From assembly GCA_025999215.1 (NCBI GenBank), contig AP024679.1:229645-293644 (forward strand): a stretch of 64,000 bases of DNA, written 5' to 3'. Each line of letters starts with the position of its first letter. Position 1 is the first letter of the stretch. A program made the position numbers and the translations under genes. Under the pieces are notes generated by a model. It saw only the letters and a program-made list of their open reading frames with translations, did not search any database and was not told the origin of the DNA. Below are positions 2,542 to 9,039 of the stretch, in pieces. Source of the DNA: Candidatus Dojkabacteria bacterium (GTDB lineage Bacteria > Patescibacteriota > Dojkabacteria > J137).

Positions 2542-2802
2542 GTGATATCTATACTCTCAATATCAAAATTCTTTGTTTTTACAGATTTAATTAAATTTGT
2601 AGGCAGAAGACATCGCAAAATCGGTCTTGCTAATGCAATAATCAAAGCACTTGAAGCAAAAGTAGTAGAGAAGAACTACGAGAAAGTTTATATACACACC
2701 GATTTATCAAAGCCAGATGTTTTGAGGTTTTGGAAAAATAGAAGTTACTCCACTTTTGAAACGGAGAGATATGTGGTTCATATGATTAAAGATCTTGCAT
2801 AG
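2542..2802 (+). CDS. GNAT-family acetyltransferase, C-terminal fragment (possibly truncated or frameshifted)
   Basis: RRHRKIGLANAII resembles the GNAT motif A (R/Q-x-x-G-x-G/A). At 86 aa it is too short for a full GNAT domain. Upstream sequence in other frames could hold the N-terminal part. Confidence 0.35.
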   Translation: MISILSISKFFVFTDLIKFVGRRHRKIGLANAIIKALEAKVVEKNYEKVYIHTDLSKPDVLRFWKNRSYSTFETERYVVHMIKDLA

Positions 2803-3820
2803 AACAAAAATTTTCAATTGTTTTTTTAGTTTTTGGCCAAAAATTAGTAATGCCGGCGTTTCTGCCGTAAAGTTTGTATCCAGCATTTACTGGTCTCCCA
2901 CCAATTTTATTGCCTGGTTCAGGTACTATAAAGCGTGTATTTCCTTTTAAATAGCTCACTAGAGCTAACACTATTCCATGTAAAAGCTCGTGAAATGTTA
3001 CAACTTGCCTGGTTGTATGAACGTAGACCTCTTGATATAAAAATTCTTTAACATTTTCAATTGTATATGATATCGCTTGTATGTTTTTTGTGTTTTTTGA
3101 ATTAAAATTGTGATGTTTAAAAGTTTCAAATACTACTTTATCCAAATAACCTCTGTATGGCTCTATTAGATCATATACAAGTGAAGGGTATTCTGTAGGT
3201 GTATGAATGAAGCCATGATATGGGCTTAAATTATGGTAATGAATCCATCTTAATATTATGCTAGATACAAACTTTGATACAGCATCAAGCGTTGCTCCGA
3301 TTAAATTTTCGGAATCTTTTTTTCTTCTAGTAGTATTGTAAAAACCAAGTGTTTTGTAGTATTTTTCCCAGTAATTTTTGGAGTGCCACGCTTCAACATT
3401 TACAATATCTTTAATATCAGTTAATCCTTTAAGGCTATAGGCAGGTTCATTAATTAGCCACTTCATAGAATTAAATTTTGCTTTGATTAGTTTTCTTGCA
3501 ATGTATGCTTTCTTTTTTTTATTTATTCTAAAAGTGATTTGTTTAGTCAAGATATCTTCCTTTCCTGTGGTAACATTTGGTGTTATAACTACAGCTCTAT
3601 GCATGTTTCTTCTGTGAATTACGATTGATACTTTTCTTTTTACACAGTTTTCTAAAAACCCTTGTTCTAGTGGGCATACACTTCCATAAAACATTATAGA
3701 GTGAATGTTATCATAGTTAATTTTTAAATCTCCTCCTTTATAGTGAAAGTGTACAGAATTTTTATTTGTAGCAATTTTATTTGTGTAAGGTAGCCATAAA
3801 TAATCTTTATTTTTTTTCAT
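2786..3820 (-). CDS. cas1: CRISPR-associated endonuclease Cas1 (belongs to the type V-D-like locus)
   Basis: 344 aa with a Cas1-like layout: a basic helix ARKLIKAKF, then NLIGATLDAVSK, then HGFIHT...SLVYDLIEPYR, which resembles the conserved Cas1 GF(L)H...DLMEPFR catalytic region. It sits directly next to the CRISPR array. Confidence 0.85.
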   Translation of the reverse strand: MKKNKDYLWLPYTNKIATNKNSVHFHYKGGDLKINYDNIHSIMFYGSVCPLEQGFLENCVKRKVSIVIHRRNMHRAVVITPNVTTGKEDILTKQITFRINKKKKAYIARKLIKAKFNSMKWLINEPAYSLKGLTDIKDIVNVEAWHSKNYWEKYYKTLGFYNTTRRKKDSENLIGATLDAVSKFVSSIILRWIHYHNLSPYHGFIHTPTEYPSLVYDLIEPYRGYLDKVVFETFKHHNFNSKNTKNIQAISYTIENVKEFLYQEVYVHTTRQVVTFHELLHGIVLALVSYLKGNTRFIVPEPGNKIGGRPVNAGYKLYGRNAGITNFWPKTKKTIENFCSMQDL

Positions 3821-3922
3821 GTTTAGTTTAAAATATCTACAAATAATTCTTTAATTAAGTATAGATTTTGCATATATATTATTGCACTTTAACATTAAAC
3901 ACAAATTAATTTCGGATAAAGT

Positions 3923-4468
3923 CACCGAAATTATTGGTGATGAAGGCAGTAAAAAGTCTTTCAGTTCACCGAAATTATTGGTGATGAAGGCGGCGATAAA
4001 GTAAGGTGGACACCGAAATTATTGGTGATGAAGGCCCTGATACTTCATCTTTCGCACCGAAATTATTGGTGATGAAGGCAAAAGGGTGTTAGATTTGAAC
4101 ACCGAAATTATTGGTGATGAAGGCAAAGTTGTAAAACTCATTCACCGAAATTATTGGTGATGAAGGCGAAAAATTCATACATTAGCACCGAAATTATTGG
4201 TGATGAAGGCAATTCCCGTAATTGTGTTCACCGAAATTATTGGTGATGAAGGCATAAAGCTGTTGCCGTTACACCGAAATTATTGGTGATGAAGGCGTAA
4301 AAGAAGGTATTTTGCACCGAAATTATTGGTGATGAAGGCTTGTCTGTCTCCGAAAGCGCACCGAAATTATTGGTGATGAAGGCACGCCGAGATGTGATTT
4401 CACCGAAATTATTGGTGATGAAGGCAAGGGCTTTCTTCAACATCACCAAAATTAAAAGGGTTTCCGGT
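3923..4468. CRISPR. CRISPR array: 12 x 25-nt repeats CACCGAAATTATTGGTGATGAAGGC plus one degenerate terminal repeat (4444-4468); 12 spacers of 17-20 nt
   Basis: I located every repeat by hand. Repeat starts are 3923, 3967, 4011, 4055, 4100, 4143, 4186, 4229, 4272, 4315, 4359 and 4401. Spacer lengths are 19, 19, 19, 20, 18, 18, 18, 18, 18, 19, 17 and 18 nt. The terminal copy CACCAAAATTAAAAGGGTTTCCGGT is degenerate. The repeat can form a CACC/GGTG mini-hairpin. Confidence 0.92.
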
Positions 4469-4531
4469 ATGTTAGAGATAACATACATTAGCCTTACCCA
4501 TTTCGAAATTATTTGTGTTTTTTGTTAAAAT

Positions 4532-7500
4532 TTGTTAATGAAGAAAAAATATAAAAAACATAAGGGAATAACTGGATATACCCTTCACAATAAAAGACTT
4601 GTATACACTGGTAACCCAAGTATTCGATCAGTTAAATTACCTCTACTTTACAATGGTGATTCTCAGATTATTCAAAATTTCTATGAATCAATGATTCATG
4701 ATTACGAAAAGCTTAATGGCGCTATTAATATTTCAACTTTTATCAAAGATAAAAATATCTATAGCCTTATAGATTTTTGGTTAGATAGCCTGAGACTTGG
4801 AGTAATATTTGGAAGTTCTTTCAAAAGTTTACAAGGTACCATAAATGAAATTTTTGGTACACGCGGTCCTTATGATGAAATACTCAGTAAGATTCCTCAA
4901 GAATTTAGAAATGAAATAAACTTTGATATTTTTGTTAAAGAAATTTTGCAAAAACAAGGAATGAGAAGCACTTCAAGCAAGAACAGTTTTATAAAAAAAT
5001 TAAAAAGATCGTTTGGTATAGATGAAAATTCACCAGATGATCAAATCCCTACACAAAAAAAATTTGTGATGGATAAAATTAATAAAATTGCCGACAGAAT
5101 GTTCCCAGTTGATAACAATTATAAGGTAGTAGATATTCAAACTCAAAGATTAATATGGAAGGAAGAGTTAAATATAGAATTTTCTGATTCAGACAAATCT
5201 GACTATAAACCAACTTTTTACATCATTCCCAGTTTGGTTGATAAAAATACTAAAGATTTTTCTAAAATCTCGCCGATTGAGGTTTTAAATAAACTTAGAA
5301 ATTTTGTAAAAGAAACATGGAATTATTCCGAAAATGATGAAAAAGAAATAACTTCTCAAGTAAAAAGCCTTGCTGGATTGTCCGAAAACTTTAATGCATT
5401 TTCAAATTATTTCAACAATATTTTTAATTTGTTGTTTGATGGGAATATAGAAGCGGTAAAAGATAATTTAAATGCCGTTTTTGAACTTGAAAAAGCTTGG
5501 GGCGATAATATTGCTGATTTAGATGAAAGATTAAATTATTTGGCAAATCAGGCTCAAAAATTAGGAAAACCCAAAATGCAAAATAATTGGGATACATATA
5601 GATCAACTTTTGGAGGTAAACTTCAAAGCTGGTTTTCAAATCTTTTAAACCAAGAAAATGAAATTAGAAACCAGTTAGAAAAACATAAAAAAGAAATAGA
5701 AGTAGCTATAAAGTTTATAGAAAAGCATGATGAAAATTCTCCAATTCTTCAAGATTTGGATCAGTTAAAACGAATTGTTCAAGAAACTATAAACTCAGGA
5801 AATATATTCGAGGCAGAAACAAAAATTAACCTATACAGACAACTCCTTGCGAAGTTTCGCTCGGATTTTAATCAATTTTACCAACGGCACAACAAAGACG
5901 ATGATGACAATAAAGACTTAAAAATTAACAAGGCTTATCCTAATTTATTTAAAAATCTTAGAGTAACTCCAGAATTTTTTGGTGGCTCTAAATACAAAGA
6001 ATACTCAAAGTACGTAGATAAAACTTTTGATATCATCACACAAGGAATTAATATGGTATTGCAAATAGAAGAATCTTTGATTAATAAAATAGATAAAAAA
6101 AATCTCGAAATAGAAAAAGAATATTTTTGTAAACAATTACAATCTTTAAAAAATAAAATAACTACAGAATCTTTATTAGACAAAGATATCAGAATAGAAG
6201 TAGAATCAATTATCAAAAAATATTATGAGTCCAAAGATAAGTTGCCAGATAAATTTGAAGCTTTCTACATCAGTCCTTACTCCAGAGACAAAAGGCTTAA
6301 ATTGATACCGATTTCAGATGATTTGAATTTCGCTTCACAACTACTTGACATACATACCGGGTTAAACAAATTTGATGTTACTAAATTTGGTTTGGATTTT
6401 AAAAAATATTTATCTTACATTGAAATTTTAAAAATTAGATTTGGTTGGATTTTAAAAATGAGCCAAAATCCTACTATAGATGTTTCAGATCTTAAATATG
6501 ATTTATCGAACTTTGAAAATGCTCAAACTTATGTAGATTACTTCGGTAGCAAAATTGAAGATATTGGAAAATTTGTAAATAGCTTCATATTTAGCGAAAT
6601 AAAAGGTGCAATATCAAAAGCAACAAGAAAAGAATTTGTTGAAAGATATGTTATCCAATTTATGGACAGCGAACAAAGGGGCTTAAAATTAACTTATGTG
6701 CCTAAAATAATAAATTCAAAGCCTGTTTCACTACCTAAGACAGTAAGCTTACCTTCAAATGCTGATGAATTATTACAAGATCCCAAAAATGACAAATTGT
6801 TTTTTTATCCTCATAGATGGAAAGTTTTGTTTGACTTTGCATCAATTAAAACAGAATCAACAGAAAATAAACCTAATGCTTTGGTATTTACTTCAAAAAA
6901 CGATTTTAAAAATCCAAAAAAAGTCTATGTTGATGATGAAAATTCCTTTGATATTACTACATCAAAATACCAAATTCACTTTTTAGACAGGCTTCTTTAT
7001 CAAACAAAAAAATGGCGGCAAACTAAAGTGGAGTTTAGCTCGCCTTTTTTAATTTTGGAAGTTACAAGCAAAGTAACTTGGGATTCTCAAACAAAAAAAC
7101 CAATACTCAAACCCAAATCTAACTCAGCAAAACAAGGTGTTCGACTTTTTATAAATTACCCGATCAATTTAAAAACTTTACCAAAAAGCAAAGAAAACAA
7201 ACAAAGTAATATTTATTTGGGAATTGATACTGGAGAATACGGACTAGCTTGGGTAGCTGTTGATTTTTCAGAAAGATTAGCACCTAAAATTTTAGATAAA
7301 GGCTTTATTTATGACGATTCACTAAGAAAAATACAAGATAGAGTAGATGAGATTAAAGATGCTCAAGTTAAAGGAACATTTGGTATTCCTAGTACCAAAC
7401 TTGCCAGAATTAGACAACACACAATTACTACTTTGCGAAATAAAGTTCATGATTTACTATTAAAATACAATGCTAAAGTAATCTACGAGTACTCAATTTC

Positions 7501-8170
7501 CAATTTTGAAACAGGTAGCAATAGAGTTGCTAAAATTTATAGGAGTATTAAGGTCTCAGACGTTTATGCCGAAACAGAGGCTGACAAATTAGTTAAAAAA
7601 CTTGTTTGGGGTAATGCCAATTTGTTACTTGGTAATCATATTTCAGCTTATGCCACTAGCTACACTTGTAGCAAATGTAGAAGATCAATATATTTTGAAA
7701 AAGGTGATAAAAATATTGTAGAAGAAAAACAAGGTTCTTTGATTAAAGTAAAAATAAACGAAAATCTGTATGTTTGGGGATATTCAGCAGATAAAAATAT
7801 TCATAAAGGGAGTATTATAAACAGTAGAGAGCTAATTAATATTGTTAAAAAATATGCTAGACCACCACAAAACTCAGAAGCTTTAAAAAAATTTAATATA
7901 CAAGCCGAACAGTTTTATGAAAATAGAGGAGCCAGCGCAATATTCATTTGCCCTTATGATGACTGTAATCATTTATCGGATGCCGATATTCAGGCTGCGC
8001 TCAACATTGCTATAAAGGGTTATGTATCTGACCAAATAGGGAAGAAAAATACTGAAAAAGATGATGATAAAAAATTAAAGTTTTATTTAGAATATTTAGA
8101 TGAAATTAAAGAAAAACATCCGGTAATCTCATTAGAAGATGTAACAGAAAATCGGGGAGACAGGACTTGA
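4532..8170 (+). CDS. cas12d: Cas12-family type V effector, most consistent with Cas12d (CasY); 1212 aa (the ATG at 4538 is the likely true start)
   Basis: C-terminal third carries a split RuvC nuclease: RuvC-I LGIDTGEYGLAWVAV (D codon 7226-7228), RuvC-II KVIYEYSISNF (E codon 7487-7489), RuvC-III SDADIQAALNIAIKG (7979-8020). A roughly 150-aa insert lies between RuvC-II and RuvC-III and contains a CSKC (7667-7678) ... CPYDDC (7949-7966) zinc finger, which is the Cas12 Nuc/TNB arrangement. There is a large N-terminal region of about 880 aa with no recognisable motif. The neighbours are Cas1 and a short-spacer array, and there is no Cas2 or Cas4. Confidence 0.75.
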   Translation: MLMKKKYKKHKGITGYTLHNKRLVYTGNPSIRSVKLPLLYNGDSQIIQNFYESMIHDYEKLNGAINISTFIKDKNIYSLIDFWLDSLRLGVIFGSSFKSLQGTINEIFGTRGPYDEILSKIPQEFRNEINFDIFVKEILQKQGMRSTSSKNSFIKKLKRSFGIDENSPDDQIPTQKKFVMDKINKIADRMFPVDNNYKVVDIQTQRLIWKEELNIEFSDSDKSDYKPTFYIIPSLVDKNTKDFSKISPIEVLNKLRNFVKETWNYSENDEKEITSQVKSLAGLSENFNAFSNYFNNIFNLLFDGNIEAVKDNLNAVFELEKAWGDNIADLDERLNYLANQAQKLGKPKMQNNWDTYRSTFGGKLQSWFSNLLNQENEIRNQLEKHKKEIEVAIKFIEKHDENSPILQDLDQLKRIVQETINSGNIFEAETKINLYRQLLAKFRSDFNQFYQRHNKDDDDNKDLKINKAYPNLFKNLRVTPEFFGGSKYKEYSKYVDKTFDIITQGINMVLQIEESLINKIDKKNLEIEKEYFCKQLQSLKNKITTESLLDKDIRIEVESIIKKYYESKDKLPDKFEAFYISPYSRDKRLKLIPISDDLNFASQLLDIHTGLNKFDVTKFGLDFKKYLSYIEILKIRFGWILKMSQNPTIDVSDLKYDLSNFENAQTYVDYFGSKIEDIGKFVNSFIFSEIKGAISKATRKEFVERYVIQFMDSEQRGLKLTYVPKIINSKPVSLPKTVSLPSNADELLQDPKNDKLFFYPHRWKVLFDFASIKTESTENKPNALVFTSKNDFKNPKKVYVDDENSFDITTSKYQIHFLDRLLYQTKKWRQTKVEFSSPFLILEVTSKVTWDSQTKKPILKPKSNSAKQGVRLFINYPINLKTLPKSKENKQSNIYLGIDTGEYGLAWVAVDFSERLAPKILDKGFIYDDSLRKIQDRVDEIKDAQVKGTFGIPSTKLARIRQHTITTLRNKVHDLLLKYNAKVIYEYSISNFETGSNRVAKIYRSIKVSDVYAETEADKLVKKLVWGNANLLLGNHISAYATSYTCSKCRRSIYFEKGDKNIVEEKQGSLIKVKINENLYVWGYSADKNIHKGSIINSRELINIVKKYARPPQNSEALKKFNIQAEQFYENRGASAIFICPYDDCNHLSDADIQAALNIAIKGYVSDQIGKKNTEKDDDKKLKFYLEYLDEIKEKHPVISLEDVTENRGDRT

Positions 8171-8225
8171 ACCTGCAACCTCACGGTCCCAAACCGTGCG
8201 TTCTAGCCAATTGAACTACTCCCCG
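8152..8225 (-). tRNA. tRNA-Pro (anticodon UGG)
   Basis: The minus strand folds as a cloverleaf: acceptor CGGGGAG/CTCCCCG with the bacterial tRNA-Pro-specific C1:G72 pair and A73, D-stem GTTC/GAAC, anticodon stem CACGG/CCGTG, loop TTTGGGA (anticodon TGG), T-arm GCAGG-TTCAAGT-CCTGT. CCA is not encoded. The 3' part overlaps the last 19 nt of cas12d. Confidence 0.8.
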
Positions 8226-8278
8226 TAGAGTAGTTACTAGCTAATTCTAACATTTTCTGAAAATTTTTGCTACTAAAT

Positions 8279-8656
8279 TTATTCCAGCAACTCTAACCCT
8301 CCGATATCACTATAAGTTTCTTTTCTGTTGGTTAGTAGTGGAGTAGAAGAGTTAATAGCTGTTGCCGCAACCAATGCATGGGCAAGAGTGATTTTTTCTT
8401 TTTTTTGGCGGATTATCCTTGCTGCAAGCAAAGCAATCTCTTCATTTATAACTTGGGTAACAAAATACTCTTTGAGAAAATTCATTACTTCTTTTTCTAA
8501 ATAATCTTCCGAAAAAGTCGTGCTCGCTAATATCTCGGTATATGTTGAAGGAGCAATCACCATGTCATATTTTTCGTAGGCATCAACCAGCTTACCTTCA
8601 CCAGTTTTCAAATATTCAATTATTACATCCGAATCTACTGTAATTGTATTTTTCAT
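8279..8656 (-). CDS. vapC: PIN-domain toxin (VapC-like)
   Basis: 125 aa. It has the N-terminal acidic motif ITVDSDVIIEYL and internal D/E residues typical of PIN nucleases, and it lies immediately downstream of a small antitoxin-like gene. Confidence 0.65.
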   Translation of the reverse strand: MKNTITVDSDVIIEYLKTGEGKLVDAYEKYDMVIAPSTYTEILASTTFSEDYLEKEVMNFLKEYFVTQVINEEIALLAARIIRQKKEKITLAHALVAATAINSSTPLLTNRKETYSDIGGLELLE

Positions 8657-8676
8657 AATTTTTTAATTTAAAAATA

Positions 8677-9039
8677 TTACTGAATTGGTTTTAAAATTTC
8701 TTTTATAAATTCTTTTTCAATTTCACTTTCAGAATTCCAAGCAACAATCTGACTCAAAGTAAACTCGCTAGAATTATTACTTTTACGTTTTTTGACTGTT
8801 TCAGCTTTTTGCTCGGGCTGAGATTTTTTAGGTTTGTTTTGTGATTTAGATTTTTTTTGAGATTCTTCCTCTAGCTCTAAATTTTTTTCTAAGTCAATCT
8901 TTTGAATTATGTACCTAGGCTTGTTGTAAGAAGTGAGAATAATTTCACCGTATTGATCAACAATAGCAAAAATATCTCCAGTTTTATTTTTAACTTCAGT
9001 AAGCGATGCAACAATTTGTCCTTTTTTGTTTTTCTTCAT
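8677..9039 (-). CDS. Phd/YefM-like antitoxin with a lysine-rich C-terminal tail
   Basis: N-terminus IVASLTEVKNKTGDIFAIVDQYGEIILTSYNKPRYII resembles the YefM/Phd fold signature. It overlaps the PIN gene in operon arrangement. The basic, low-complexity tail is unusual. Confidence 0.45.
   Translation of the reverse strand: MKKNKKGQIVASLTEVKNKTGDIFAIVDQYGEIILTSYNKPRYIIQKIDLEKNLELEEESQKKSKSQNKPKKSQPEQKAETVKKRKSNNSSEFTLSQIVAWNSESEIEKEFIKEILKPIQ

Follow-up and report, generated by a model that had tools for sequence, protein, structure and literature searches.

The locus studied here raises a simple question: do a cas1 gene, a CRISPR array with short spacers and one large adjoining open reading frame (ORF), with both genes left as 'hypothetical' in the public record, form a complete type V-D CRISPR-Cas system, and is the scoutRNA that such a system would need also encoded there? 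The locus lies in a window of 64 kb (the whole stretch of DNA that was analysed; all positions count from its first letter) from Candidatus Dojkabacteria bacterium, contig AP024679.1. According to the GenBank record, the source is a metagenome-assembled genome (MAG), the contig measures 862 kb, and the host is a bacterium of the candidate phyla radiation (CPR). A first-pass annotation, made from the letters alone, had proposed a minimal type V-D-like locus at 2786-8226. We conclude, with a probability of roughly 93%, that the locus is an intact type V-D system of this CPR genome and that its four components are cas1, an array with short spacers, the gene for a scoutRNA, and cas12d (Table 1). 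Systems of this kind have already been described as the Cas12d/CasY immune system of CPR bacteria, and what is new here is the location of the scoutRNA gene. A literature search on the source MAG (KatS3mg) returned nothing about the locus.

Layout of the locus

The elements are arranged in the order cas1 (minus strand), leader, array (plus strand), a truncated terminal repeat, scoutRNA gene (plus strand) and cas12d (plus strand). The succession of array, degenerate or truncated repeat, scoutRNA and cas12d was also found in the locus of KbCas12d/CasY.1 (L028) and in many other loci. Cas1 and the effector lie on opposite sides of the array, which is the layout of the originally described CasY loci, while in the hot-spring Roizmanbacteria CasY loci both cas1 and the effector are found on one side of it (PMC6509639). 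The ORF list, the repeat finders and the raw sequence all placed cas1, the 12 repeats of 25 nt and the large ORF where the first-pass annotation had seen them. Its right boundary of 8226, on the other hand, was set too far, since it wrongly included a tRNA-Pro(tgg) gene that lies outside the system.

The large ORF encodes Cas12d

The ORF ends at 8170 and starts either at a TTG at 4532, giving 1212 codons, or at an ATG at 4538, the GenBank call, giving 1210 aa; the effector length of 1212 aa reported at first thus holds when counted from the TTG but not against the GenBank call. We compared the protein with profile hidden Markov models (HMMs). It matched the NCBIfam equivalog model NF033951 ('type V CRISPR-associated protein Cas12d/CasY'; cutoff 250 bits) with 1132.3 bits, from position 1 to 1180 of the 1180 positions of the profile and over residues 11-1165 of the protein, and the PADLOC Cas12d models at 1e-181 and 4e-165. 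The first 880 aa, in which no recognisable motif had been seen, match the Cas12d profile throughout, and that statement therefore needs softening.

All of the motifs quoted for the C-terminal part, namely GIDTGEYGLAWV (RuvC-I), VIYEYS, CSKC...CPYDDC and DADIQAALNIA, were found in the translation. They place the catalytic residues at D897 in RuvC-I (nt 7226-7228), E984 in RuvC-II (7487-7489) and D1150 in RuvC-III (7985-7987), and the zinc ligands at C1044, C1047, C1138 and C1143. In an alignment of nine family members with 28-59% identity, D897, E984, D1148/D1150 and the four cysteines were invariant. In the family member P0006, the aligned counterparts of D897 and E984 are D828 and E914, which are D827 and E913 of KbCas12d (the numbering is offset by one), and alanine mutation of these two residues abolished cleavage by KbCas12d (bioRxiv 10.1101/2023.12.12.571249). 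The effector has the single C-terminal RuvC domain with D/E/D catalytic residues and the zinc-ribbon insert that are expected of Cas12d.

An exact-sequence look-up identified the effector as GenBank BCX13698.1, 'MAG: hypothetical protein KatS3mg085_230 [Candidatus Dojkabacteria bacterium]'. The deposited record thus bears out to the letter the prediction of a 'hypothetical' annotation, although NCBI's own HMM would name the protein. A word-indexed search of 5.8 billion proteins gave eight relatives, the nearest of which (P0004) is 57% identical and the next 41%. P0006 (1125 aa, 35% identical) is KbCas12d/CasY.1 and is encoded at ~100% identity in L028, beside the exact published scoutRNA; around position 993 of L028, tblastn splits the KbCas12d/CasY.1 protein into two pieces that meet at residue 268, a frameshift that is either an assembly error or a variant. 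When 1.84 billion representatives at 50% identity were scanned in full with HMMER, for which, as for structure prediction, residues 11-1210 of the effector were used, 170 proteins were found at E <= 1e-30. The Cas12d family is small but well populated.

Cas1 is the sole adaptation gene

The product of the gene to the left of the array was identified as Cas1 by Pfam PF01867 (Cas_Cas1; E 8e-26), by TIGR00287 (87 bits; cutoff 71.7) and by the PADLOC Cas1 model (6e-31). Its record, GenBank BCX13697.1, is likewise annotated as 'hypothetical'. The gene is oriented divergently to the array and is the sole adaptation gene at the locus: in the nine flanking ORFs between 209 and 12611, no match to cas2, cas4 or any other Cas family was found, in line with what the first-pass annotation had stated. 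Type V-C and V-D systems are without cas2, and Cas1 of type V-C integrates spacers alone (PMC6977970).

The array carries a repeat of the KbCas12d type

The repeat CACCGAAATTATTGGTGATGAAGGC is present in 12 perfectly identical copies, with starts at 3923, 3967, 4011, 4055, 4100, 4143, 4186, 4229, 4272, 4315, 4359 and 4401, the last copy ending at 4425. The spacers measure, in order, 19, 19, 19, 20, 18, 18, 18, 18, 18, 19, 17 and 18 nt (one of 17 nt, six of 18, four of 19 and one of 20). The repeat length of 25 nt given earlier is correct, and the spacer range of 17-19 nt fails in one case, a single 20-mer, so that it becomes 17-20 nt. The repeat folds as a 6-bp hairpin (CACCGA/UUGGUG; -6.0 kcal/mol, z -3.2), which leaves GAUGAAGGC single-stranded, as happens in the Kb repeat too, and its 3' end is AAGGC. 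It is identical at 20 of 25 positions to the published repeat of the KbCas12d/CasY.1 CRISPR RNA (crRNA), CUCCGAAAGUAUCGGGGAUAAAGGC, and the likeness to CasY repeats stated in the first-pass annotation is thus borne out. In the KbCas12d crRNA the spacer stands 3' of the repeat, and the transcribed strand of the array here is therefore the plus strand.

For a wider comparison, 68 loci encoding Cas12d relatives were gathered, nearly all of them from CPR/Patescibacteria MAGs or metagenomes. About 40 contain an array, with a period of 43-44 nt and the repeat on the cas12d strand. Their repeats are mostly 25 nt long (26 in three loci, and shorter where a contig end interrupts the array). Every repeat that was recovered to its 3' end terminates in AAGGC, and most begin with C.CCGAAA. 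The array of the window fits this pattern.

The scoutRNA gene lies between the array and cas12d

Within the 112 nt that separate the last repeat from cas12d, we found an evident homologue of the KbCas12d scoutRNA, an RNA whose activity has been demonstrated by experiment. The Kb scoutRNA and crRNA sequences were taken from the supplement of the KbCas12d preprint (bioRxiv 10.1101/2023.12.12.571249), and in the alignment CAAAATTAAAAGGGTTTCC-GGTATGTTAGAGATAACATAC-ATTAGCCTT-ACCCATTTC of the window stands against CAAAAUAAAAAGGGUUUCC-AGUUUUUAACUAAACU-UUAGCCUUCCACCCUUUCC of Kb. A first helix, P1, is formed by 4458-4461 and 4496-4499 and can be extended to AAAGGGU/ACCC(A)UUU; it is followed by a UUCCG linker and by the P2 hairpin, which pairs 4467-4474 with 4479-4486 around a GAGA loop. 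The anti-repeat GCCUU at 4491-4495 is complementary to the AAGGC at the 3' end of the repeat. This GCCUU is invariant among the scoutRNAs of related loci, and in nearly all of these loci a GCCTT preceded by a hairpin occurs within ~150 nt upstream of cas12d. The scoutRNAs share one architecture: the 5' strand of P1, a (U)UUCC linker, a P2 hairpin of variable sequence, UUA-GCCUU, 0-4 nt, and the 3' strand of P1.

A covariance model was used in place of MAFFT alignments, which did not keep many scoutRNAs in register; it was seeded with three loci, rebuilt on 12 hits and run over 571 kb on both strands. At E <= 0.05 it gave 18 hits, each lying just upstream of cas12d and on the same strand as that gene. 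Within the 64-kb window, 4455-4502 was the single hit, with 54.5 bits and E 8e-11. Covariation upholds both helices: across the 18 loci, standard pairs occupied 90.9% of the pair cells versus 54% after shuffling, with none of 500 shuffles reaching the observed value, and 13 of the 14 pairs showed compensatory double changes, figures that are somewhat inflated because the alignment was fitted to the model. When the partners were slid by 1-3 columns, pairing fell to 39-48%. The compensation is also visible in the raw sequence, where GGGT/ACCC and GTATGTTA/TAACATAC of the window correspond to GGCT/AGCC and GTTTGTTA/TAACAAAC of L038. A scoutRNA had been predicted as a requirement of the system, and its gene is indeed present in the locus.

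Rfam 15 contains no family for the scoutRNA or the repeat. There is a lesson for annotation here: both cas genes are deposited as 'hypothetical' and the scoutRNA is without an Rfam family, yet one curated HMM together with a simple covariance model is enough to recognise them unambiguously. With the coordinates of the scoutRNA known, the system becomes directly testable, since the sequences suffice to synthesise the protein, the crRNA and the scoutRNA.

Table 1. Features of the type V-D locus and of the adjoining tRNA gene
Feature	Position	Strand	Basis or remark
cas1, 344 aa	2786-3820	-	Pfam PF01867, TIGR00287, PADLOC Cas1
Leader, AT-rich	3821-3922	+	Sequence; comparison with L076
CRISPR array, 12 identical 25-nt repeats and 12 spacers	3923-4443	+	Repeat finders, sequence
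Truncated degenerate terminal repeat, CACCAAAATTA (repeat nt 1-11, CACCGAAATTA)	4444-4454	+	Abuts the scoutRNA gene; similar in L028 and other loci
scoutRNA gene, core	4455-4502	+	Alignment with KbCas12d scoutRNA, covariance model, covariation
Repeat-like segment, TTCGAAATTATTTGTG (13/16 to repeat nt 2-17, ACCGAAATTATTGGTG), then T-run	4499-4523	+	Sequence; conserved in L076
cas12d (casY), 1210 aa	4538-8170	+	NF033951 equivalog, PADLOC Cas12d, invariant catalytic and zinc residues, AlphaFold2 model
tRNA-Pro(tgg)	8152-8225	-	Overlaps the cas12d ORF by 19 nt at the 3' end of the ORF

Flanks of the scoutRNA core and a second class of scoutRNAs

A stretch at 4444-4468 was considered as a degenerate 13th repeat and rejected as a plain repeat, since it consists of a truncated repeat that is joined to the first part of the scoutRNA gene. 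The truncated part, CACCAAAATTA, equals repeat nt 1-11 with one change, and CAT plus CACCAAAATTA gives CAUCACCAA, a 9-nt complement of repeat nt 12-20 (4438-4454). In the Kb locus (L028 98-125), the scoutRNA is preceded by the first 13 nt of the repeat, and the AAAGGG of P1 resembles the AAAGGC end of the repeat. Downstream of the core, the repeat-like segment with its T-run may, judging from its sequence, represent the 3' end of the scoutRNA or a terminator; a terminator scan gave no call at 4499-4523. Both flanks of the core (4438-4454 and 4499-4517) are repeat-like, which hints at an origin of the scoutRNA from a terminal repeat unit. A more speculative proposal is that the gene arose from the truncated terminal repeat of the array and might still begin in it. 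A 44-nt core scoutRNA is optimal for KbCas12d (bioRxiv 10.1101/2023.12.12.571249), which argues that the repeat-like flanks are non-essential.

Spacer 6, GAAAAATTCATACATTAG (4168-4185), shares the 10-mer CATACATTAG with the scoutRNA gene at 4480-4489 (3' strand of P2 and linker), which may be a coincidence in AT-rich sequence.

A second class of Cas12d loci (L003, L032, L034, L035, L040, L042 and L051) has repeats of the type CATCGAAAGTTAGGAACCAAAAGGC, which are not self-folding. The scoutRNAs of this class are longer (~75-145 nt upstream of cas12d) and carry, in addition to GCCUU, an anti-repeat of 10-12 nt that stands ~49 nt upstream of GCCUU and covaries with the repeat (GGTTCCTAAC/GTTAGGAACC, AGTTCCTAACT/AGTTAGGAACT and GGTTACTAACCC/GGGTTAGTAACC). 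By their sequences, the second-class scoutRNAs appear more similar to trans-activating crRNAs than those of the class found in the window.

A syntenic locus and possible exchange of the module from cas1 to the scoutRNA

One of the loci, L076 (JGI metagenome 3300034038; effector P0004), is syntenic with the window over cas1, leader, array, scoutRNA, cas12d, tRNA-Pro, PIN, FemAB, Mur ligase and hydrolase; it differs in the genes to the left of cas1 and in its tRNA-Pro, which does not overlap the stop codon of cas12d. Cas1 is 95% identical between the two loci, with 85% identity at third codon positions. The leaders agree at 93 of 102 nt, all differences being proximal to cas1 and the 57 nt that adjoin the array (3866-3922) being 100% identical; the repeats are 100% identical, and the scoutRNA region shows 3 differences in 90 nt. 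An identity of ~97% persists through the first ~55 nt of cas12d, and the entire stretch of 2808-4594, compared with 6046-8057 of L076, has 93-100% nucleotide identity. Past this point, windows of 30 nt show a nucleotide identity of 57-77%. Over its whole length, Cas12d has 57% identity, with 82-94% in 50-residue windows of the RuvC core and mostly 34-66% N-terminal to the core, and the neighbours are diverged as well: PIN 74%, FemAB 64%, Mur ligase 67% (49% at third positions) and hydrolase 60%.

Since the module is conserved at 93-100% of nucleotides while Cas12d and the neighbours share 57-74% of amino acids, recent recombination or transfer is the simplest reading. We give an even chance to the proposal that an adaptation-plus-RNA module, consisting of cas1, leader, repeats, scoutRNA and the first ~19 codons of cas12d (~2808-4594), was recently exchanged as a unit between two Dojkabacteria lineages, with a breakpoint just inside cas12d. 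If so, Cas12d orthologues that are only 57% identical would use the same crRNA and scoutRNA, and the mosaic conservation would amount to a natural experiment on how Cas12d diverges while its guide RNAs are kept. The array of L076 has 17 spacers versus 12 in the window and shares none of them; such wholly different spacers between identical repeats are consistent with ongoing acquisition in this lineage.

Proposed mechanism

We propose a mechanism on the basis of the work on KbCas12d/CasY15 and on the Cas1 of type V-C. Cas1, acting without Cas2, would insert spacers of 17-20 bp at the leader-proximal repeat (3923). Rightward transcription would cover the array, the scoutRNA and probably cas12d. 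In each crRNA, a 25-nt repeat handle (hairpin and AAGGC) would precede the spacer. The scoutRNA would pair through its GCCUU with AAGGC at the repeat-spacer junction, and Cas12d would bind both RNAs together. The complex would recognise double-stranded DNA beside a short 5'-TR/TA protospacer adjacent motif (PAM) and cut it with its single RuvC site, and collateral cleavage of single-stranded DNA would be expected. For the PAM, the processing of crRNAs and the cleavage of DNA, the proposal extrapolates from KbCas12d and CasY15.

Alternative explanations

The analysis shows directly what each part is, how the parts are ordered and on which strands they lie, that the catalytic residues are conserved, and that the structure of the scoutRNA is conserved as well. 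All testable points of the type V-D interpretation held, as the equivalog HMM, catalytic residues, fold, gene content, array, host and scoutRNA each uphold it, and no observation contradicts the assignment, the function presumably being that of the relatives. Besides the inflation of the covariation figures, several points nevertheless weigh against it, and they are given here together with the alternative that each concerns.

The alternative that survives best, although we regard it as improbable, is that the system is a genuine type V-D system that no longer defends the cell, either as an inactive relic or because it has a use other than cutting invaders. A precedent is the fragmented CasY with self-targeting spacers in hot-spring Roizmanbacteria (PMC6509639). 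No consensus sigma-70 promoter was found on the plus strand of the leader, and a promoter and terminator scan of 3700-4700 gave none above expectation. Spacers 2, 3, 4 and 10 had no exact match in IMG/VR. Spacer 8, ATAAAGCTGTTGCCGTTA (4254-4271, an 18-mer), matched exactly in 7 IMG/VR contigs (L069-L075) belonging to 3-4 unrelated viral groups, with a 5' flank of TG in two groups (a possible TR PAM) and of CG or CA in one. The number of matches is about that expected by chance for an 18-mer, and no second spacer matches these 7 contigs; the result is therefore consistent with chance, and there is no convincing protospacer among the spacers searched in IMG/VR. In contrast, the cas12d ORF is uninterrupted with its catalytic and zinc residues intact, 12 of 12 repeats are identical, the helices of the scoutRNA are intact, and no spacer matches elsewhere in the 64-kb window at <= 2 mismatches. 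The completely different spacer set of the sister locus L076 also implies recent acquisition. These observations speak against the alternative of a system that no longer defends the cell.

Much less probable is a type V-C system, in which the effector would be Cas12c, a member of the sister family whose loci also have Cas1 only, short spacers and a scoutRNA. An AlphaFold2 model of residues 11-1210 (mean pLDDT 76.8, pTM 0.63), built on the nine-sequence alignment only, gave a predicted bilobed fold similar to Cas12c. In a Foldseek search of the PDB, Cas12c1 (7vyx; TM 0.60, E 4e-27) came first, accompanied by Cas12c2 (7v94 and 7v93), over essentially the whole chain, and CasX/Cas12e and Cas12a ranked next. 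Cas12c2 was also the only match, a weak one, in a sequence search of the PDB, and the Cas12c HMMs match the C-terminal part partially. However, the Cas12c equivalog NF033950 reached 49.6 bits against a cutoff that is likewise 250, compared with 1132 bits for Cas12d, and both the repeat and the scoutRNA match the KbCas12d RNAs in sequence. No Cas12d structure was present among the top 50 fold matches listed or in the PDB sequence search. The PDB as searched appears to be without a Cas12d structure, which makes Cas12c simply the nearest solved relative.

Least probable of all is a TnpB/IS605-type, transposon-encoded RuvC nuclease lying beside the array by chance: the sole Pfam match of the effector is a weak Cas12f1-like TNB zinc-ribbon domain over the second zinc-ligand motif (E 0.0021; 18.6 versus 26.3 bits, thus below threshold), but the best profile matches are to Cas12d at full length, the 1210-aa protein has about three times the length of TnpB (~400 aa), neither a TnpA gene nor transposon ends were seen, and the gene is syntenic between array and tRNA-Pro in the second genome, L076. 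The profile results already refute this alternative, which the first-pass annotation itself had raised.

Neighbouring genes

The type V-D locus is flanked by a variable region on the left of cas1 and by tRNA-Pro on the right. The nine flanking ORFs encode a GNAT fragment, a PIN-domain protein, FemAB, a Mur ligase, an alpha/beta hydrolase and four products without a Pfam family above cutoff. In L076, the same tRNA-Pro lies 6 nt past the cas12d stop and the Cas12d is 12 aa shorter overall, from which it follows that the C-terminal tail of Cas12d in the window reads into the tRNA gene. Just beyond the tRNA, at 8279-9039 on the minus strand, lie the PIN-domain ORF (125 aa; Pfam PIN 1.6e-05) and then a 120-aa ORF without a family match, both conserved in L076; the two could be a toxin-antitoxin pair.

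Comparison with known systems

The locus adds one intact and fully delimited Cas12d system, with effector, Cas1, array, leader and scoutRNA, to a small family. Its nearest solved folds are those of Cas12c1 and Cas12c2 (7vyx, 7v93 and 7v94), with TM 0.52-0.60 over the whole chain. Type V-C loci of Cas12c1/Cas12c2 resemble type V-D in having Cas1 only, short spacers and a dependence on scoutRNA, whereas their effectors are 13-15% identical to that of the window, the Cas12c HMM remains below its cutoff, and the repeat and scoutRNA differ in sequence.

The closest characterised system is KbCas12d/CasY.1 of Candidatus Katanobacteria (bioRxiv 10.1101/2023.12.12.571249). Like the window, it consists of cas1 and cas12d only, has a 25-nt repeat (20 of 25 positions identical) with an equal hairpin and the AAGGC end, has spacers of the 17-19-nt class, and follows the same order of array, truncated repeat, scoutRNA and cas12d, with equal catalytic D and E residues. 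The two differ in host phylum, which is Dojkabacteria (WS6) for the window, and in the effectors, which are 35-38% identical, that of the window being 85 aa longer (1210 versus 1125 aa). The scoutRNAs share the architecture of P1, UUUCC, P2 hairpin, UUA-GCCUU and P1, with long identical stretches, CAAAAU.AAAAGGGUUUCC and UUAGCCUU..ACCC; P2 has 8 bp, a GAGA loop and a differing sequence in the window, compared with 5 bp in KbCas12d. Finally, the KbCas12d preprint places the scoutRNA 'upstream of the array', while, read in the orientation of the crRNA, both L028 and the window have it on the 3' side of the array.

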